In this document: positions 8,774-60,400 of the stretch, piece after piece | Layout: every line of letters begins with the position of its first letter | Position numbering within the stretch: position 1 is the first letter of the stretch | Origin: a virus | Length of the DNA: 64,000 bases | Virus record (IMG/VR): IMGVR_UViG_3300045988_134109 | Location: 1 to 64,000 of that record | Reading direction: 5' to 3' (one strand) | Notes under the pieces: model-generated | Database searches by the model: none | What the model was told of the DNA's origin: nothing | What the model saw: only the letters and a program-made list of their open reading frames with translations | Position numbers and translations under genes: made by a program

Positions 8774-9424
8774 ATGGGAACTGCTAAGAGTATCCTTAAA
8801 AAGAGTGCTAATGATTGGCTTGGAACCAATCATGAATTATCCAAAAGCGAAGATAGTATCAAGCGTAAGCACGTACATGAATTAAAACGCATCTTTCAAA
8901 TTTTATTGGATCATCAAGGATTAAAAGTGTTAGGGACCGTAAATGTGATTGTTGATGAAGTTTGCGGGGAAGGTACATGGATTAAGTATTCAGAAAGATC
9001 TGAAAGATGGAGAAAGGGTGAGGAAGAAAGAAAAAGAATAAAATTAGAGAGATTAAGAAAGGAAGAAGAAGCCCGTTACAAGGATTTTGATGAAAAACTG
9101 GAAGAGTGGAAGTCAGGAGAAATCAATTTCTTGAATACACCTTTCTATATTCCTGGTGAAAAACCTAACGCCTGGATTCGTATAAAAGGAAATATTATTG
9201 AGATAAGTAAACAGATAAAGATTGGAATAGCAGAAGCCAAAAAACTGTGGCGGGATGTGTCGGCAATGCACCGGGGCGCCGAGTTTCGGCACGGTCTGGT
9301 GGAGGACGTCACCGGTCACCAGTGGAGTCTAAATCGGTACGAAAACGATTTGCTAACCGCTGGATGTCATAGGATAGCATATAACGAAATGGAGAGAATA
9401 GCAAAACAACTGGGATGGGTGTAA
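8774..9424 (+). CDS. hypothetical protein with a K/E-rich coiled-coil segment (216 aa)
   Basis: ATG ORF. Confidence 0.55.
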   Translation: MGTAKSILKKSANDWLGTNHELSKSEDSIKRKHVHELKRIFQILLDHQGLKVLGTVNVIVDEVCGEGTWIKYSERSERWRKGEEERKRIKLERLRKEEEARYKDFDEKLEEWKSGEINFLNTPFYIPGEKPNAWIRIKGNIIEISKQIKIGIAEAKKLWRDVSAMHRGAEFRHGLVEDVTGHQWSLNRYENDLLTAGCHRIAYNEMERIAKQLGWV

Positions 9425-9471
9425 GTAGTCCATCTTATTTTATTAATCACATAATTAAAAACAAGAAAAAT

Positions 9472-10206
9472 ATGAAAAATCTAATTATTGTTCCGTTTGA
9501 TTTAGAAACGGCAAAAAAAATAAACATAGGGGAAATAGCAGGTCGTATTGTGACAGAGAAAGGACAAAATAGAGCAGAAATCGTATATGAAGACAATTCG
9601 TCAAATTGTCCGTTATTGGTTGTAATTCATTCGATTTCTGTATCGGCAGACTGGTTTTCTGCTACAGGAAAAGCACTTAGCAGCGCAAATCGACTCCTTC
9701 TTGAAGTTCCAGAATATACTACGTTTAAAGATGGAGAGGTGTTAAGTAATAAAGATGGTAGCTATATCTTTATTTTAAATACACATGGGAAATATTTAAC
9801 GTCTTTTTATGCCTCTTTAAATCAAAAAGGTATTCTTAAAATAGAAGATGGTTTATCTGCTTGGGAAAATCAGATAGAAAAATACAGATTTGCCACTGAG
9901 TCCGAAAGACAAAAGTTGGTTGACGCATTAAAGGCAAGCAAAGAACCTAAAGCTAAAGAGTATCTGAAACGCTTCTTCGGGATTGAAGAAAAGCCGAAAT
10001 ATGATTTTAAGCCGTTTGACAAAGTGCTGGTAAGAGACGAGGACGATAAAGAATGGCATATCAGCTTGTTTGCAAGGGAAATTGTGGACGATTCTGATGG
10101 ATTGTCTTATAAGCATGAATGTTCCAATGGAACATTATGGGACTGTTGCATTCCTTTTGAGGGCAATGAATATCTTTTAGGAACTGCTGAAAATCCAGAA
10201 GATTGA
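9472..10206 (+). CDS. hypothetical protein (244 aa from the ATG at 9472); its last codon and stop are supplied by the IS end
   Basis: the track start at 9415 is non-ATG; the ATG at 9472 is preceded by an A-rich leader; the stop TGA at 10204-10206 lies inside the IS right-end sequence TTGACATACTCCCAT. Confidence 0.5.
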   Translation: MKNLIIVPFDLETAKKINIGEIAGRIVTEKGQNRAEIVYEDNSSNCPLLVVIHSISVSADWFSATGKALSSANRLLLEVPEYTTFKDGEVLSNKDGSYIFILNTHGKYLTSFYASLNQKGILKIEDGLSAWENQIEKYRFATESERQKLVDALKASKEPKAKEYLKRFFGIEEKPKYDFKPFDKVLVRDEDDKEWHISLFAREIVDDSDGLSYKHECSNGTLWDCCIPFEGNEYLLGTAENPED

Positions 10207-10514
10207 CATACTCCCATGTTGTTTGAGAATGAAGAAGATTTCTTTTAATTCTTTTGGTAAAATGTTTCTTCATTTTATCAACTGAGATATATTTTCCAAA
10301 CAGTTTGTAATACCTACGTTGTAGAGCTAAAGCATGATTCCACACAAAACAACATTCACGAAGTATCTTGACAAGATACTTCGTTTTCTTCGAATGATAG
10401 ATGTTGTATTTGTATGAAATCATTTTTTTATCTGTAATTTTGATTCAAAATTAATCAAACCAATTCATCCACCTTCTAAAGTATGGTGGTTTTGTTGGTT
10501 AAATAATCATAAAA
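10203..10514 (-). mobile_element. IS200/IS605-family (TnpB-only type) element remnant, copy 1; internally deleted (right-end tip, first ~73 codons of tnpB, left end)
   Basis: 10203-10217 equals the first 15 nt of the repeat at 28861 and 42783; 10219-10514 is ~90-95% identical to 29466-29776. Confidence 0.75.
10204..10423 (-). pseudogene. tnpB: tnpB N-terminal fragment (MISYKYNIYHSKKTKYLVKILRECCFVWNHALALQRRYYKLFGKYIS...)
   Basis: the N-terminus is identical to the 191-aa TnpB fragment at 29110-29685; classic OrfB/TnpB N-terminal pattern (YKYRIY...CRFVYN); the reading frame diverges after ~50 aa. Confidence 0.7.
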
Positions 10515-25835: not shown

Positions 25836-28278
25836 ACTTAGACCTTACCAAAAAGAGGCAGTAGATGCCGGGCTTAAGTTTCTTACAGGAAGATCTAAGA
25901 AGCCTGGCATAATCGTAGCTCCATGCGGATGTCATGCAAAAGGATACGGAATACTCATGTATGACGGGACAATAAAGAAAGTGGAGGATATTGTAGTTGG
26001 AGATAGGGTAATGGGTGATGATGGAACCCCAAGAACTGTCCTGGAATTGCATAATGGAATAGATGACATGTATGAAATAAGACCTTTAAAAGGGAAGCCT
26101 TTTATCGTGAATAAAGGCCATATAATGTCAATGTATAGATTAAAAGATAAACGAAAAGATGGTCCATCTATAGAAGAAGTAAGCATCGGGGAGTATATAA
26201 AATTTGCTCCTTATCATAAGACGATTCTTAAGCTTAGAAGACCAAACGGTTTCGATTTTGAGGAATCTAAAAAGAATATGCCGTTAGATCCTTATTTTTT
26301 GGGATTGAGCCTTGGAGATGGCAGTATCACCTCCAGTCTTAGCATAACTACTCAACGACAAGAAATAGTAGAATATTTATATTCGTTTGTTAAGCAGTAC
26401 AATATGTATATAAGAGTAGCAGAGAAGAAAGGAACTAACAATAAGTCAAAATCTTATTTTTTATCAAAAGGATGTGGAAGAGGTGGGAACCCTATAATAA
26501 ATGCTATTAAAGATATAGGATTATACAATAGAAAATCTGGTGATAAATTTATACCAATACAATATCTTACATCAAATAAAGAAAACAGATATAAACTATT
26601 AGCTGGATTTCTTGACACAGATGCTTATTATAATAAATCAGGAAAAGGGTATGAGTATTGCAGTAAATCTGAAACAATGATGAAACAATTTGTTTTATTG
26701 TGTAGAAGTTTAGGATTGTTATGTTCAGGATACTCATGTAAACTTGTTGATGGTGTAAAATATTATAGAACTGGAATATATGGAAATTTAGAGAATATAC
26801 CCGTAAGGGTTGGTATAAGAAAAGGAGCCAATAGGATAATAAATAAAAATCCATATGTTGTTGGCTTCAAGGTAGAATATGTAGGAAAAGGAGAATATTA
26901 TGGTTTTACAACAGATGGGAACCATTTATATTTGGATGAGCAATGCTTTATTCATCATAATTCGGGAAAATCTTTAATAATATCCAAGATAGCACATGAA
27001 ATAAATAGACCGACGTTAGTATTACAGCCCTCAAAAGAGATTCTGGAGCAGAATTATGCAAAGGCTGTATCATTCGGTTCTAAACCTACCATATATTCTG
27101 CTTCATGTGGTATAAAGGAGCTGTCGGCTATGACTTATGCAACATTAAAGAGCATAAAGAAAGATGTAGCGAAGTTGAAGGATATAGGGATAGATACCTT
27201 ATTGATAGACGAATGTCATTCAGGATATTCCCCAGAAGAAGGTTCTGAATTTATGGAGTTTATGAGCAGGTTTCCAGAGGCGAAGGTGCTGGGCTTCACT
27301 GCCACGCCCTGCCGCCTCCGGACCTACAGCTCCATGCTGGAAGGGAACTATAGCAAGCTCAATATGCTGACGAAAGACGAACATAACTTCTTCAAGAAAA
27401 TAGTTCATGTAACTCAAATACAAGAACTAACCTCTCAAGGGTTTTGGTGTCCACTTAAGTACGAACGATGGTCGTTTGATGAATCGGCTCTGATGTTAAA
27501 CAGTACCGGGGCTGAATACACCAACGAATCTATTAAAGAAAGTATTGTAAGAAATGGCTTAAACAACTCTATCTACAAGCGCCTTCTTCAACTTATGAAC
27601 GAACGTAAAGCCATTTTGGTTTGCATGGATTCTATTGAATCATGTAATAGAATATCAGAGTTCATGAATGCCAAGATGGGAGCCATAACCGGTGTCGTAA
27701 CATCGCTAACAACCAAAAAGAAAAGAGAACAAATCATATCCGATTTCAAAGAAGGTAAGTTGAAGGTGGTTTTTAATTATTCAACGCTTGCTACCGGATT
27801 TGATTTTCCTGAACTTGATTGTGTGATGTTTGGTCGCCCAACTTTCTCATATTCAACGTATTACCAAATATTAGGCCGCGCCATCCGCATCCATCCTGAC
27901 AAGAAAGAGGCACTGATAGTTGATTGCTGCGACAACATGAGGCGCTTCGGCCGAATAGAGGACTTGACAATCGAACAATTTCCTTCTAAGGGTTGGTGTA
28001 TGTTTGCCGGCAATCAACTTCTGTCCAATATAAGGATGGGTGATATTATTACCAAAGACGAGATCCTTCGCCGGGCAGCCTCGCTTAAATCTGTGAATGG
28101 AGATGGTAGGAGAGAAGACGATCTTGACAGTATAATAATGTGGTTTGGAAAATATGAAGGAATTAGATTCAAGGATATACCAGTGTCGTATTTTAGGTTT
28201 TTGGCTGAGAATATGGCAGTAAAACCGGGAGATAGGAAAGAAAAGATTATCGAATATTATAATAGGATAAAGGCATGA
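25825..28278 (+). CDS. SF2 DNA helicase (UvsW/XPB-like; extein of 473 aa) interrupted by an intein in the Walker A motif; C-terminal DUF3820-like tail
   Basis: LRPYQ at the N-terminus, APCG|intein|SGKS reconstitutes APCGSGKS; LIDECH (motif II), GFTATP (III), ILGRAIR (VI); C-terminal IMWFGKYEGIRFKDIPVSYFRFL resembles the FGKYKG...P.SYL.WL domain. Confidence 0.75.
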   Translation: MGFELRPYQKEAVDAGLKFLTGRSKKPGIIVAPCGCHAKGYGILMYDGTIKKVEDIVVGDRVMGDDGTPRTVLELHNGIDDMYEIRPLKGKPFIVNKGHIMSMYRLKDKRKDGPSIEEVSIGEYIKFAPYHKTILKLRRPNGFDFEESKKNMPLDPYFLGLSLGDGSITSSLSITTQRQEIVEYLYSFVKQYNMYIRVAEKKGTNNKSKSYFLSKGCGRGGNPIINAIKDIGLYNRKSGDKFIPIQYLTSNKENRYKLLAGFLDTDAYYNKSGKGYEYCSKSETMMKQFVLLCRSLGLLCSGYSCKLVDGVKYYRTGIYGNLENIPVRVGIRKGANRIINKNPYVVGFKVEYVGKGEYYGFTTDGNHLYLDEQCFIHHNSGKSLIISKIAHEINRPTLVLQPSKEILEQNYAKAVSFGSKPTIYSASCGIKELSAMTYATLKSIKKDVAKLKDIGIDTLLIDECHSGYSPEEGSEFMEFMSRFPEAKVLGFTATPCRLRTYSSMLEGNYSKLNMLTKDEHNFFKKIVHVTQIQELTSQGFWCPLKYERWSFDESALMLNSTGAEYTNESIKESIVRNGLNNSIYKRLLQLMNERKAILVCMDSIESCNRISEFMNAKMGAITGVVTSLTTKKKREQIISDFKEGKLKVVFNYSTLATGFDFPELDCVMFGRPTFSYSTYYQILGRAIRIHPDKKEALIVDCCDNMRRFGRIEDLTIEQFPSKGWCMFAGNQLLSNIRMGDIITKDEILRRAASLKSVNGDGRREDDLDSIIMWFGKYEGIRFKDIPVSYFRFLAENMAVKPGDRKEKIIEYYNRIKA
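25930..26961 (+). mobile_element. intein (344 aa) with a LAGLIDADG homing-endonuclease domain
   Basis: starts with Cys (CHAKGYGILMYDGT..VEDIVVGDRV Hint block A) and ends ...CFIHHN followed by Ser of the extein; internal FLGLSLGDGSI and LAGFLDTDAY LAGLIDADG motifs. Confidence 0.8.
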
Positions 28279-28631: not shown

Positions 28632-28877
28632 ATGAAAACAAATGAATTAAGGGAAATACTTAAATTGTATGGTCTTCAACATGATGTTGTTATCAACAAA
28701 AGTTCAAGAAGGTATTCTATTATCTTAGATAATAACATAATAGGAACCAATCACGACAAAGAGAGGGTGGTTGTGTTCCGTCCTATACCGGAAGGGAAAA
28801 ACACATTCTGCATGGAGCGAGATAGGTTCTACACGGAGTTTGAAGAAGCTTTTGATGATGTTGACATACTCCCATAG
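28632..28877 (+). CDS. 5' part of a gene disrupted by the IS insertion (76 native codons, then 5 codons plus stop from the IS end)
   Basis: SD GGAAGGAG then ATG; the reading frame runs into TTGACATACTCCCATAG of the IS right end. Confidence 0.6.
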   Translation: MKTNELREILKLYGLQHDVVINKSSRRYSIILDNNIIGTNHDKERVVVFRPIPEGKNTFCMERDRFYTEFEEAFDDVDILP

Positions 28878-29776
28878 CTAAAGCAAATGGGATTCTTGGA
28901 TACAAACGTATGGAACCCCGGTATTTCTACCGCTGGAATTACCCATACTCTCCAATTCGGAAATGCCCTTCCGAAGTATATTACGGGCTGCAAGAACATC
29001 ACGGTCGTTGACCGCGCCGCACGACGGGCATACCCACGTGCGGTCGCGTAACGACAGACCTTTATTAATGCAGCCACATTCACAAGTTTTGGAAGAAGGA
29101 TACCATTTATCATTTGTTCCCATCACTTTTAGTTAGATAAGTTTTCAGGCCAAAATCCAATCCGATAGATGCACCATCATGTGTCTTTCTATAAGAGTTT
29201 GAAGGATTATGATCTGTAACTATAATCAAACTAAAGCGGGAACAGGTTTCTTTAACTATTCTTATTTGTTTAACATTACCTTCGTAGACTCTACTGTATG
29301 AAAATCTAAATCGTTTCTTCCCTTTGTTAATTGTTAAACAATTACCATTCAGGGTAAAACCACCTTGTTTGAAAACAAAAGAATTGAATTTCTCCGGTGA
29401 TTTAAACTTAGGAGGTCGTTTAGCCAACTTCTTAAAGAAACGATTATAAGATTCATCAAGACGTTCAAGTATTTCTTGTGTTGTTTGGGAATGAAGCAAG
29501 TTTCTTTTAATTCTTTTGGCAAAATACTTCTTCATTTTGCCAACTGAGATATATTTTCCAAACAGTTTGTAATACCTACGTTGTAGAGCTAACGCATGAT
29601 TCCACACAAAACAACATTCACGAAGTATCTTGACAAGATACTTCGTTTTCTTCGAATGATAGATGTTGTATTTGTATGAAATCATTTTTTTATCTGTAAT
29701 TTTGATTCAAAATTAATCAAACCAATTCATCCACCTTCTAAAGTATGGTGGTTTTGTTGGTTAAATAATCATAAAA
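28861..29776 (-). mobile_element. IS200/IS605-family TnpB-only element, copy 2 (916 bp, decayed)
   Basis: the right end (28861-28993) is ~90% identical to 42783-42915; 29466-29776 matches 10219-10514; the flanking ORFs fuse in frame when 28861-29776 is removed. Confidence 0.8.
28878..29685 (-). pseudogene. tnpB: tnpB pseudogene: N-terminal 191 aa (through RuvC-I IGLDFGL) plus a frameshifted C-terminal 82 aa (zinc finger CxxC..CxxC plus RuvC-III DRDVLAARNI); ~100 aa including RuvC-II are missing
   Basis: two ORFs at 29110-29685 and 28878-29126 overlap in different frames; the N-terminus MISYKYNIYHS..CCFVWNHAL is typical of OrfB/TnpB. Confidence 0.75.
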
Positions 29777-29778
29777 AG

Positions 29779-30024
29779 GATGAAGATGAAAAAGGGTATG
29801 TCTATACCGTAAGAATAAAACAAAACAACGGAAGGGTTGTGCATGCTACTCTATTTTTTAAAGACAAGAAAGGCCCTACATTTGAAGATTTAAAGAAGGA
29901 GCTTGATGGCATGGGAGTTAAAAATGATAGTTATAGCAATAACGGCATAATTATCATTAACCGCATTATCATGAGCGGAGAAGAATTTGATCGCTTTGTA
30001 GGAGATGATGGGCGATATTATTAG
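29779..30024 (+). pseudogene. 3' part of the IS-disrupted gene; in frame with 28632-28860 after in-silico excision of 28861-29776 (track ORF 29839-30024)
   Basis: the open frame extends without an ATG from the IS boundary (DEDEKGYVYTVRIKQNNGRVVHATLFF...); joining ...EEAFDD + E + DEDEKG... restores a 159-aa ORF. Confidence 0.6.
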
Positions 30025-31487: not shown

Positions 31488-32678
31488 ATGAGATTAGTTG
31501 AAAGGCATATAGTTAAAGACAACCGGTTTGAGGATATTTGCTTCAAATCCGGCTTGTTATATAATTATGTTCTTTACAACATTCGTCAAGGAATCTTTTC
31601 AGGTAACTATTTAAAGGAATTTGATTTATCAGACAAACTTTGCAAAGAAAACCAATTCGATTTCAGGAATTTACCTAATCATGTATCCCAACAGGTGATT
31701 AAACAGGTATTTAAAAACATAAAATCCTGGATAAAACTCAAGAAGGATTTTGAAAAGAATCCTTCTAAATACGGAAATCATAGACCTCACCTTCCATCAT
31801 ACAAACAAGGTAAGAAACAAAACATGGTTGTTTTCACCAACTGCAATTGTAGGGTAAAGGGTGATAATTGTATTTATTTTGTTAAAGATATAATCAAACC
31901 TATCAAAACAAATGTAAAGAAAGACGAACTAAAACAAGTTAGAATAATCCCTCAAGCTACATGTTATGTAGTAGAGGTAGTTTATGAAAGAAAGGAAACT
32001 GATCTTGGTTTAAACAAAGACAATTTTCTTTCGATTGATTTAGGATTGAATAATTTATGTTCATGTATTAGTAATGTAGAAACTAATTCTTTCATTATAA
32101 ACGGACGGGTTATGAAATCAGTAAATCAGTGGTACAATAAGAAGAAAGCTAAGTTGATGTCTTTTGTTGGTAATAAGGGAACTTCAAATAGAATAAGAAA
32201 AATTACTTTGTTTAGAAATTGTTGGATAGAAGACAAATTGCATAAAATCAGTAGATACATTGTAGACTTTTGTAAATCTAACAATATAGGAACAATCATC
32301 ATTGGATTAAACAAAGAATGGAAAAACGAGATAAATATCGGTAAAAGGAATAACCAACATTTTGTTTCTATTCCTCATTCTAAATTGATCGATAAGATTG
32401 TTTACAAAGCAAATCTTTTAGGGATAGAGGTAATTACTCATGAGGAATCTTACACATCAAAGATTGACCATCTTGCTTTTGAACCTCTAAAGAAACAAGA
32501 ATCCTATTTAGGGAAAAGAAAGAAACGTGGATTATTCCAAAGTTCCGTTGGAAAGCTAATTAATGCTGATATTAATGGAGCTATAGGAATAGCAAGAAAA
32601 GTAGTCGGTGATTCTTTCATTGGAAAGATAATCGATAGTGGATTTGTGTTTAATCCGGTTAGAATAAATATTTTGTGA
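31488..32678 (+). CDS. tnpB: full-length TnpB (IS200/IS605 OrfB-type RNA-guided nuclease homolog, 396 aa); RuvC-I/II/III residues present, zinc-finger cysteines absent
   Basis: LSIDLGLNN (RuvC-I D), ITHEESYTSKIDH (RuvC-II E), INADINGAIGIARK (RuvC-III D, NADxNAAxNIA pattern); the segment between RuvC-II and RuvC-III (SKIDHLAFEP...RGLFQSSVGKL) has no CxxC pairs. Confidence 0.75.
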   Translation: MRLVERHIVKDNRFEDICFKSGLLYNYVLYNIRQGIFSGNYLKEFDLSDKLCKENQFDFRNLPNHVSQQVIKQVFKNIKSWIKLKKDFEKNPSKYGNHRPHLPSYKQGKKQNMVVFTNCNCRVKGDNCIYFVKDIIKPIKTNVKKDELKQVRIIPQATCYVVEVVYERKETDLGLNKDNFLSIDLGLNNLCSCISNVETNSFIINGRVMKSVNQWYNKKKAKLMSFVGNKGTSNRIRKITLFRNCWIEDKLHKISRYIVDFCKSNNIGTIIIGLNKEWKNEINIGKRNNQHFVSIPHSKLIDKIVYKANLLGIEVITHEESYTSKIDHLAFEPLKKQESYLGKRKKRGLFQSSVGKLINADINGAIGIARKVVGDSFIGKIIDSGFVFNPVRINIL

Positions 32679-42782: not shown

Positions 42783-42915
42783 TTGACATACTCCCATAGC
42801 TAAAGCAAATGGGATTCTTGGATACAAGCGCAAGAAACCCCGATATTACTATCGCTGGAATTACTCTTGCTCTCCAATTTGGAAATGCCCTTCCGAAGTA
42901 TATTACGGGCTGCAA
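42783..42915 (-). repeat. solo 133-bp copy of the IS right end (tnpB 3' end plus RE = omega-RNA scaffold region), no TnpB attached
   Basis: ~90% identical to 28861-28993, starting with the same TTGACATACTCCCATAGCTAAAGCAAATGGGATTCTTGGATACAA. Confidence 0.8.
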
Positions 42916-58628: not shown

Positions 58629-59648
58629 TCAATCATGTACGGCAGACAAACCGCCCGAATCAGGGTCGTACTTAAGACCGCATGCCCGGCGATAGTTCTT
58701 AAGCGCTCTCTTGTACAAAAACAGCACTGTCTTGGAAACTATTTTCTTCATAGATTTGGTTAAAACCTCTTCTGTTGAAACAGACATCAGACAGCTATTC
58801 AAAAACGACCTGACATTGGAACCGAACAAGATCTTCACCATTTTTCTAAACGTTCTAAAAAGATATGATGCAGAAAGAGACTTTAACCCATTGCGAACCA
58901 GTCTCTTATTCAAATACGAAACAGCCTTTTCAGATAGACAGAGCCTATTCTTTCCTTCGCTATCTACCTCTGATGAAAACCACGAATATAAAGTGGTAGG
59001 ATGTTTCTTAAGGTGATTGATGAAGGAAGTCATTATCCCTTCTTTTAAAGCCCTTTTGTGGGCTACGCATGCAGCAATCTTCTCTTCTCTTTTTAAAGAG
59101 CTGTCAAGGCATCTAAACACCGTCCTATCGTCTCCGATGAAATACTGAGGACGTTCTTCCTTGAACTTAGCCCGATAAGCGGCATATCCTTCCTTACGAA
59201 GCATATCTATCTGAGACCGGATATAGAACCTTACACACTTTTCTTCAGCCTCTTGCACGCTTTTAAGATAAGGAACTGACTTTCTCCCATATCGAAGATA
59301 ATCGTAAACCATAGCCTCAATAAAGTCATTGTACGGAAAGAATCTTCCAAATCCAAAGTTCCAAACTATGAAACATCGCACTCTATCTTTCCAGTAATCA
59401 GATATGAGAAAATTACTACAATATCTCAACTTCCTGTTTTTCTGATAGAAATGATGAGTATGTTTGTCATAAAATAGATTAAAATATCTCAAATTGCCCA
59501 AACACTGACCGGCTGGACGGCGTACTACATTGTACCCTAAGTTGCTGAAGCTATTGTATATAACTTCTATCGGAGAGACCTGCTCTTTCTTGAAGAGCTT
59601 GTCGTGTAACTTGTGAGGATTCATTATTTCAGTTATTTTTGTCTCCAT
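58629..59648 (-). CDS. orphan basic/aromatic-rich protein (339 aa) inserted between giant structural genes
   Basis: ATG start preceded by TATATTTG and directly downstream (on the minus strand) of the hairpin at 59708-59748; no recognisable domain. Confidence 0.6.
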   Translation of the reverse strand: METKITEIMNPHKLHDKLFKKEQVSPIEVIYNSFSNLGYNVVRRPAGQCLGNLRYFNLFYDKHTHHFYQKNRKLRYCSNFLISDYWKDRVRCFIVWNFGFGRFFPYNDFIEAMVYDYLRYGRKSVPYLKSVQEAEEKCVRFYIRSQIDMLRKEGYAAYRAKFKEERPQYFIGDDRTVFRCLDSSLKREEKIAACVAHKRALKEGIMTSFINHLKKHPTTLYSWFSSEVDSEGKNRLCLSEKAVSYLNKRLVRNGLKSLSASYLFRTFRKMVKILFGSNVRSFLNSCLMSVSTEEVLTKSMKKIVSKTVLFLYKRALKNYRRACGLKYDPDSGGLSAVHD

Positions 59649-59707
59649 ATTGTTTTTGTTTTTTAGTGCAAATATATGATTTTATATAAAAAGAAGAAAA
59701 TGCACTG

Positions 59708-59748
59708 CCTTGTATCCGGTTTGAGAGAAATAGGATACAAGGTTTTTT
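59708..59748 (+). terminator. strong hairpin (CCTTGTATCC / GGATACAAGG, 15-nt loop) followed by T6 on the plus strand and by a U-rich stretch on the minus strand
   Basis: 10-bp perfect stem; plus strand TTTTTT immediately 3'; the minus strand reads CAGUGCAUUUUCUUCUUUUU 3' of the stem. Confidence 0.6.
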
Positions 59749-59749
59749 A

Positions 59750-60400
59750 TTTTATGACGGTTTGGATAAGAGACAGGAAAACGACTCTGAACGTAACCGA
59801 CTGACCGTCAGTGGTGGGACAACAAATCTTGAATTAAAACTACGCCTATGAATAGTCTCCGTTTTCCTTAATATTAAGACCATTTTCAATGATCTTACTC
59901 ATTATATTATTTATATTATTTTATATACTTTACCATTTATTCATATAATTGTTTGCAGTGAATGAACTTAACGACTGAAGGGAGTTAAGTGAGTGAACGG
60001 ATTGACAAATTACTTTTTCCGTCTATTGTATTGTTTGCCTAATTGTGTTAAAAGATTGAGTATCGTGACCGAAGGGAACGATGCGAAAGAACATATAATA
60101 TTTAAAAACGACTGAACCTATCGACTGAAGGGAGATAGGTGATGGAGTGACGTTAATAATTATATTAGATAGCCAGTGGAGAATTAGGCAGGCTGGTAGG
60201 CGAGACGAGCGTCCATGCCCGTCAGGACAGTGGAAGTACGTAGGTCTGTTCTGTTAAACCAAGACGATGATAGTTCCATCCTTCACGAAATTGCACAAAA
60301 AAGCCGGATTATCTTGATATCGTTCTTCAACCTTTGGTATCCGCATAACGAGTCTCAAATCCGGCTTCGCTTTATTAATATGAGAAATAAAATAATTGTT
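59750..60400. other. 650-bp non-coding, locally GC-rich region with three stem-loops sharing the loop GAC(T/C)GAAGGGA; candidate structured RNA or protein-binding array
   Basis: hairpins at 59967-59989 (CTTAAC/GTTAAG), 60062-60082 (ATCGT/ACGAT) and 60117-60139 (CCTATC/GATAGG) have different stems but the same 11-nt loop; additional partial CGACTGA copies at 59782, 59798 and 60109. Confidence 0.5.

Follow-up and report, generated by a model that had tools for sequence, protein, structure and literature searches.

A decayed IS608-like element stands in place of 154 nt of two adjacent genes in a crAss-like phage

Results

A 910-nt element truncates two phage genes

The stretch of DNA analysed here, positions 1 to 64,000 of IMG/VR record IMGVR_UViG_3300045988_134109 (the 64-kb window, given in plus-strand coordinates), contains a 910-nt insertion sequence (IS) of the IS200/IS605 type that lies between the remnants of two phage genes, which we call A and B. 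Comparison with related phages indicates that this is very probably a decayed, non-autonomous IS608-like copy residing in an ancestral A+B pair, with 154 nt of phage DNA lost between two TTTAT motifs in a deletion mediated by the IS. The element was recognised in an earlier note, made from the sequence alone, as a decayed, tnpB-only member of the IS200/IS605 type, an assignment that its reading frames, Pfam matches and intact relatives bear out. The same note took it for an insertion inside one gene that excision would restore, and here the relatives disagree, as nearly all of them have two genes and all have 154-156 nt more.

The closest GenBank record to the window is that of phage crAssE-Sib (OR575929, hereafter L001; 94% identity), which is classed as an epsilon crAss-like phage (PMC11054128). 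At the homologous site crAssE-Sib has no element and carries two annotated genes, A (L001 4432-4737, 101 aa) and B (L001 4715-5056, 113 aa), which overlap by 23 nt in different frames and sit between a 118-aa gene and a dATP/dGTP pyrophosphohydrolase gene. Homology between the window and L001 runs up to 28860 (L001 4660) and is found again from 29771 (L001 4815), with 910 foreign nt in the window in place of 154 nt in L001 (4661-4814). The remnant of gene A shares 100% identity with L001 4432-4660 and with 32 related loci, homology stopping at 28860, and past these native codons its open reading frame (ORF) continues into the IS, which adds a foreign VDILP-stop ending at 28877, just as the earlier note had read it (76 native codons, then VDILP-stop). 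Gene B has lost its ATG and about its first 35 codons, and no ATG, GTG or TTG precedes the GTG at 29839; the frame ending at 30024, which had been thought to start exactly at the IS boundary, is open already from 29680, upstream of that boundary. The features of the locus are collected in Table 1.

Table 1. Features of the element and of its flanks in the window.
Feature	Coordinates	Strand	Details
ORF with gene A remnant	28632-28877	+	81 aa
5' remnant of phage gene A	28632..28860	+	76/101 codons; 28632-28859 plus g at 28860
Would-be omega-RNA guide, flank 3' of the right end	28841..28860	-	5'-CATCATCAAAAGCTTCTTCA
Whole IS element	28861..29770	-	910 nt; from empty-site relative and junctions of other copies
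TnpA right-end signals	28861..28895	-	TCAA, hairpin, GAAT
Predicted omega-RNA scaffold	28861..28977	-	~117 nt; overlaps tnpB 3' end, stops at the right end
tnpB C-terminal fragment, out of frame	28878..29126	-	82 aa; zinc finger CECGC...CPSCG and RuvC-III NDRD
tnpB N-terminal fragment	29110..29685	-	191 aa; through RuvC-I IGLDFGL, ends shortly after
Left end	29686..29770	-	19 nt GATTATTTAACCAACAAAA, then hairpin CCACC...GGTGG 29731-29751
Transposon-adjacent motif (TAM) TTTAT	29771..29775	-	ATAAA on + strand; phage DNA = L001 4815-4819; present in empty-site relatives
3' remnant of phage gene B	29771..30024	+	~last 80/113 codons

Two IMG/VR scans with proteins A and B gave 160 related locus entries on ~90 contigs, and together with L001 these make 161 entries comprising 33 sequence variants. 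In all 161, BLAST places 154-159 nt between the window's two flanks and a pattern search finds the middle segment kept, while none has the IS at the A/B site and none has a zero gap between the flanks. Nearly all of the loci encode two genes, A of 91 or 101 aa and B of 113 aa, which overlap or are ATGA-coupled and lie in different frames. Pfam and PHROG searches with A and B returned no matches. Judged by its being missing at this site from the 161 related loci, and by junctions that have no true match in viral and metagenome collections, the insertion is recent or private, in line with the earlier view that it is recent.

Excision on paper gives a chance fusion

The idea that the IS simply inserted inside one gene, so that precise excision would restore an ancestral 159-aa ORF, draws on the single open frame that is left when the element is removed on paper and on the existence of rare natural A-B fusion proteins. 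The open frame is confirmed, but its length is not: of the two boundaries that the earlier note had placed to the nucleotide, the one at 28860/28861 is correct, whereas the other lies at 29770/29771 and not at 29776/29777, 6 nt away, and with the true ends precise excision in silico gives an in-frame A-B fusion of 160 aa. This product is ~47 residues short and is not the ancestral gene. It is in frame only because, in the L001/L013 type, the frame of B is +1 to that of A and the 154 nt lost equal 1 mod 3, an outcome with a chance expectation of 1 in 3. Related phages with an uninterrupted 159-aa gene were looked for and none was found among the 161 loci; the 160-aa form occurs in no relative either, the usual state being two separate genes in different frames with sequence between the breakpoints, and all relatives keep the 154-156 nt which the window lacks.

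A protein search with the 160-aa paper fusion leads to the same picture: most of the proteins returned resemble either A (88-101 aa) or B (107-117 aa) alone, and several of these clusters have hundreds of members. Seven small clusters, P0001-P0007, with 1-3 members each and proteins of 193-207 aa, match the query over 96-97% of its length and are, by alignment, natural in-frame A-B fusions that arose via four or more different small indels. Each of them retains the middle segment, ~47 residues which the window fusion would lack. Simple insertion into one gene is thus scarcely tenable, and the tidy single gene seen after paper excision is, on this comparison, a chance fusion and not the original gene.

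Part of the variation between A and B is explained by an A-run of 4, 5 or 6 nt shortly before gene A ends (AATAAAACAG, AATAAAAACAG or AATAAAAAACAG; L001 4690-4720 and its equivalents in the 161 loci), whose length toggles the locus between overlapping, ATGA-coupled and fused arrangements. Because A and B have been fused independently several times, they are probably functionally linked, and by their reading frames fusion is probably tolerated. The A-run and the rare fusions suggest either a joint role for the two proteins or frameshifting or slippage at this place.

Ends and target motif

The right-end (RE) boundary is exact, being fixed by the empty-site relative and by ~30 other copies of the element, which end in ...GGGAGTATGTCAA and then pass into unrelated flanks. 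The left-end (LE) boundary stands beside a TTAT motif that is present at 13 independent insertion sites, where the junctions read TTAT/GAT(T/A)ATTTAACC (here and below a slash marks a junction) and most have TTTAT. Insertion 3' of TTAT is seamless, as the window itself illustrates at 28266/28267, the empty site (...AATAGG/ATAAAGGCATG) of a 571-nt mini-element carried by L049 and L113, where the gap is 0 in 114 loci. Copies of this IS, as read from these junctions, insert 3' of TTAT without target duplication.

Both ends have subterminal hairpins in place of terminal inverted repeats. Read on the minus strand, the LE is TTTAT / 19 nt ending AAAA / CCACC-loop-GGTGG, in which AAAA (29752-29755), the last four of the 19 nt from the cleavage point, is the candidate guide. 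The RE reads GAAT / CCCAT-loop-ATGGG / AGTATG TCAA /, with the guide tetranucleotide GAAT at 28892-28895 and, in a DNA fold, the hairpin at 28871-28891; the cleavage tetranucleotide TCAA (28861-28864) is set off by 6 nt and ends 10 nt 3' of the hairpin foot, and the hairpin shows compensatory changes among element copies. In IS608, TTAC lies 19 nt 5' of the left hairpin and TCAA 10 nt 3' of the right hairpin, the guides being AAAG and GAAT (PMC3201880; PMC5934647). By these signals, which share TCAA, GAAT and their spacing with IS608, both predicted TnpA-recognition ends of the window element are intact.

These ends also bear on the proposal that the insert is a self-splicing intron or IStron, in which RNA splicing would let the two truncated genes be expressed as a single protein (A'-B'). 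In its favour are the in-frame flanks, the frequency of introns in phage genes and an intein nearby in the window. The ends, however, are canonical IS608-type DNA ends common to copies at unrelated sites, and tnpB is antisense to the host genes. An Rfam search of the whole window at gathering thresholds gave zero matches, and at E <= 10 the region 28700-29900 gave noise only, with no intron, omega-RNA or other family; a ribozyme core was thus not detected. We consider splicing next to impossible.

Origin of the 154-nt deletion

Both ancestral breakpoints abut ATAAA on the plus strand, which is TTTAT on the element strand (L001 4661-4665 and 4815-4819), and the ancestral junctions read GATGATG/ATAAAGCC and TATCA/ATAAAAAGG. 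TTAT occurs at ~1.0-1.4% of positions, or ~650 times per strand in the window; since it is rare and a random endpoint would seldom fall there, a link between the deletion and either the element or the 5-nt repeat is very likely. The element would have inserted at one of the two TTTAT sites, with an IS-mediated deletion following, and three mechanisms can be envisaged for that step. (a) After insertion at the second motif, TnpA would cut at the RE and at the next downstream TTAT and join them, using the chemistry of the half-reactions of integration. (b) Two copies, one at each motif, would recombine, either within a single genome or between co-infecting genomes. (c) Replication would slip between the 5-nt repeats.

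Slippage could also have come first, a 154-nt deletion between the ATAAA repeats creating an IS-free A-B fusion into which the IS later inserted at the remaining TTTAT. A 5-nt direct repeat does bound the deletion, and in nature A and B have been fused by several small indels of independent origin. This order of events would require the IS to pick one TTAT among the hundreds on each strand of the window, and an IS-free 160-aa allele (joint GATGATG/ATAAAAAGG) was not found in our scans. We regard it as highly improbable.

The allele might, alternatively, be an artefact of assembly, in which an IS at both TTTAT sites (in tandem or in two co-occurring strains) was collapsed or joined through the repeat; junctions of the form RE/TGATACCATC... 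or with the LE flank ATAAAGCCATAG would then be implied. The IS is indeed repeated in the same genome (fossils at 10203-10508 and 42783-42915, described below), and the flanks differ in type, the left one being 100% L001/L013-like and the sequence immediately to the right L063-like. The allele was assembled identically in at least four further public contigs: entries for the exact 81-aa A' protein exist for five contigs from several assemblies, and the four loci fetched are all 100% identical to the window over their length. Three of these four contigs end inside the IS at 29442-29528, and a single contig crosses the LE junction. These breaks fall near the part repeated at 10217-10508 and are explained by the 97%-identical fossil there. 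L013 fits both flanks (100% and 96.5%), so that there is no need to assume a switch of strain. An artefact would also call for two separate insertions at a distance of 154 nt, and no contig with the reciprocal junctions was found in the IMG/VR and metagenome scans. Taken together, an artefact appears improbable.

Certain points weigh against an IS-mediated deletion as we have drawn it. In the collections scanned we found no intermediate allele, neither a simple insertion at either TTTAT nor an IS-free fusion: an exact scan for the RE at site 1 had 0 matches in both IMG/VR and the metagenome contigs, one for the LE at site 2 had 0 in IMG/VR, and the 25 matches to a degenerate pattern, which would pick up an IS-free fusion as well as the LE at site 2, were all due to chance. 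With no intermediate allele found, the order of events and the mechanism of deletion are tentative. Flank similarity does not help, as L013 matches at 100% and 96.5% and L063 at 98.7% and 97.6%, a switch at the IS too weak to separate the mechanisms. The LE junction is spanned by one 140-kb contig only, and expression of the omega-RNA, supply of TnpA or TnpB in trans and cleavage are predictions.

A broken tnpB and a decay series among relatives

The tnpB gene survives as two fragments (Table 1), and its first description from the sequence, with an N-terminus through IGLDFGL, the zinc finger and RuvC-III in another frame, about 100 residues including the RuvC-II glutamate deleted and no TnpA, proves accurate on each count. 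The C-terminal piece matches the Pfam family Cas12f1-like_TNB (PF07282, E 3.3e-13), and the N-terminal piece has a weak Pfam match to HTH_OrfB_IS605 only. Relative to intact 379-aa copies, 332 nt (~111 codons) have been deleted internally, the joint lying at ~29112/29113; against the copy in L232 the missing stretch spans ...SDG to ...IDKWYP, including IFIEDLN with the RuvC-II glutamate, and the frame is shifted. By its reading frames tnpB of the window copy is dead and should be unable to make an active nuclease. No TnpA (Y1 HUH transposase) is encoded in the element or in the whole 64 kb, and the window copy is therefore non-autonomous; it could now move only if TnpA were supplied in trans.

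Copies of the IS elsewhere were found by BLAST of the element against the fetched loci and by an IMG/VR scan with the RE 14-mer. A related element in MT839900 (L002) encodes a Y1 transposase (Pfam Y1_Tnp, E 1e-39) in divergent orientation to tnpB, and its homology to the window starts exactly at 28861; a second copy carrying tnpA occurs in L213. Seventeen full-length copies of ~1242 nt were extracted, 16 of them with an uninterrupted TnpB of 375-379 aa, and the intact TnpB of the family has OrfB_IS605 and TNB domains (Pfam). The copy in L232 is 95% identical to that of the window, which is, from these alignments, a deletion derivative of the 1242-nt tnpB-only IS608-like IS200/IS605 element. 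crAssE-Sib has a 76%-identical element elsewhere, at 58969-60129. Shorter derivatives (571 nt, ~200 nt and 87-202 nt) occupy sites that are filled by full copies elsewhere, giving a decay series from tnpA+tnpB through tnpB-only (1242 nt), 910 nt, 571 nt and ~200 nt to a solo RE.

At the sites of L232, L256, L210 and L207 the element is complete (1242 nt) in some genomes and reduced to remnants of 87-202 nt in others, at one and the same position, which means that the element decayed in situ in different lineages. The 571-nt mini-element, which consists of the RE with its omega-RNA region and the LE (L049 1379-1949 / L113 1662-2232), has its place, in one relative, between the genes for the helicase and the 118-aa protein. 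Within the window, a second fossil of the same IS at 10203-10508 (minus strand) keeps the LE and first ~290 nt, 97% identical to 29479-29770, which run directly into the final 15 nt of the RE (ATGGGAGTATGTCAA); TTTAT lies at 10509-10513. The terminal TCAA of this fossil provides the TGA stop of ORF 9415-10206, and homology to crAssE-Sib stops at ~10200. A perfect palindrome with 12-bp arms (ACGAAGTATCTTGnCAAGATACTTCGT) is located within the 5' portion of the tnpB coding sequence at 29620-29646 and is conserved between the two window copies, the second being at 10358-10384. A solo RE with its omega-RNA scaffold is found at 42783-42915 (minus strand; 133 nt, 92% identical), without tnpB or LE and just past a terminator-like hairpin, and comparable solo-RE pieces, 117-140 nt long, are present in L173, L182, L187, L245, L197, L206, L217 and L234.

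When bacterial genomes were scanned with the RE 14-mer, the matches listed included distant relatives only, the best being Poribacteria TnpBs at ~42% amino acid identity, and no host was identified among them. The 14-mer, TTGACATACTCCCA, also ends TnpB elements in L379, L386, L364 and L397 (Candidatus Poribacteria and other metagenome-assembled genomes), whose TnpB is ~40-46% identical. Its presence at such distant bacterial elements means that the extreme 3' end of this type of omega-RNA and RE is conserved far beyond the phage family.

A predicted omega-RNA

Aligning 35 distinct element copies over their last 125 nt yields a consensus omega-RNA of five helices with 38 pairs, 14 of them with compensatory changes, in which 97% of cells are paired. 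On four of five measures none of 500 shuffles reached the observed value, and slid partners were 35-55% paired. The window copy retains every helix, so that its guide-RNA module is intact although the nuclease gene is dead, and its expression and use are predicted.

The sequence flanking the RE serves as the omega-RNA guide in the homing configuration of TnpB (PMC8612924; bioRxiv 10.1101/2023.03.14.532601), and by analogy we infer that the RE flank in the window would take this role. TTTAT followed by the 20-nt guide CATCATCAAAAGCTTCTTCA is found in 69 related loci and is missing from the window itself. The omega-RNA would act only with a TnpA-independent TnpB supplied in trans, cutting TTTAT-CATCATCAAAAGC..., which is the intact gene-A allele of sibling phages; targeting of that allele would match the standard logic of homing.

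One elaboration joins this module to the deletion: TnpA would have caused the 154-nt loss by a one-ended 'adjacent deletion', in which the LE guide captures the next downstream TTAT and not its own flank, the RE is joined to this new flank and a 154-nt circle is released, and the orphan omega-RNA would serve as a homing or exclusion cassette with TnpB in trans. We hold this combination to be rather unlikely. In the literature we found no explicit account of adjacent deletions by IS200/IS605 elements.

Other features of the window

An intact TnpB of a different family is encoded at 31488-32678 (plus strand; 396 aa, with OrfB_IS605 and TNB domains and no visible CxxC pair). The same place is occupied in L003, and the gene is missing from L001 and L063; its presence is in keeping with the description of two dissimilar TnpBs in crAssE-Sib (PMC11054128). 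The helicase gene at 25825-28278 (plus strand) carries an intein (Pfam Hom_end_hint) as an insert at ~25933-26979, which brings the protein to 817 aa, compared with 473 aa in crAssE-Sib, and is missing in all eight relatives compared. As a check for recoding, tRNAs and suppressor tRNAs were sought across the whole window and none was found, and a scan for promoters and terminators gave no relevant signal over expectation.

Discussion

For annotation, this locus illustrates that an in-frame junction after excision on paper is weak proof of simple insertion, and that comparison with an empty site is needed. Here that comparison reveals two conserved phage genes truncated and 154 nt gone, and both genes appear dispensable. 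The locus and its relatives define an IS608-like family of epsilon crAss-like gut phages, with its ends, its TAM (TTAT), an omega-RNA outside Rfam and a complete decay series. The flanking deletion bounded by TAMs hints that the IS200/IS605 machinery can delete adjacent DNA, a modest curiosity.

In essence, the window element is an ordinary decaying member of an IS family that is common among these phages, and TnpB genes have already been reported in this phage group (PMC11054128). That study describes TnpB 'transposase' genes in crAssE-Sib and in some Epsilonunovirus genomes, and annotates the genes only, giving no ends, TAM, omega-RNA, minis or the insertion site of the window. The nearest model is IS608 of Helicobacter pylori, the IS200/IS605 prototype, which likewise inserts 3' of a tetranucleotide without duplication and has the 19-nt left spacing, the order GAAT, hairpin and TCAA at the RE, and tnpB next to the RE. 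Unlike IS608, the window element has TTAT in place of TTAC and the candidate left guide AAAA in place of AAAG, a paired change that would fit the IS608 pairing rule, and the window copy is without tnpA, has a broken tnpB and resides in a crAss-like phage.

ISDra2 TnpB of Deinococcus radiodurans aligns with the intact TnpB of the family (E 3e-29, residues 11-352, including the D/E/D motifs and zinc finger), and the two share a structured RNA that overlaps the 3' end of tnpB and stops at the RE, with the flank as guide. They differ in the TAM (TTAT/TTTAT and not TTGAT), in a scaffold that has no Rfam family and in the lack of an active nuclease in the window copy. Other non-autonomous IS200/IS605 derivatives, whether tnpB-only or PATE/MITE-like minis, have also kept their ends and lost interior sequence, while the window copy has in addition lost 154 nt of flanking host DNA between two TAMs. 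Nuclease-dead TnpBs of the TldR type (bioRxiv 10.1101/2023.11.30.569447) have likewise lost RuvC capacity and kept the guide-RNA module; TldRs, however, are intact, conserved ORFs at fixed loci, whereas the ORF in the window is split by a frameshift and its insertion is private.

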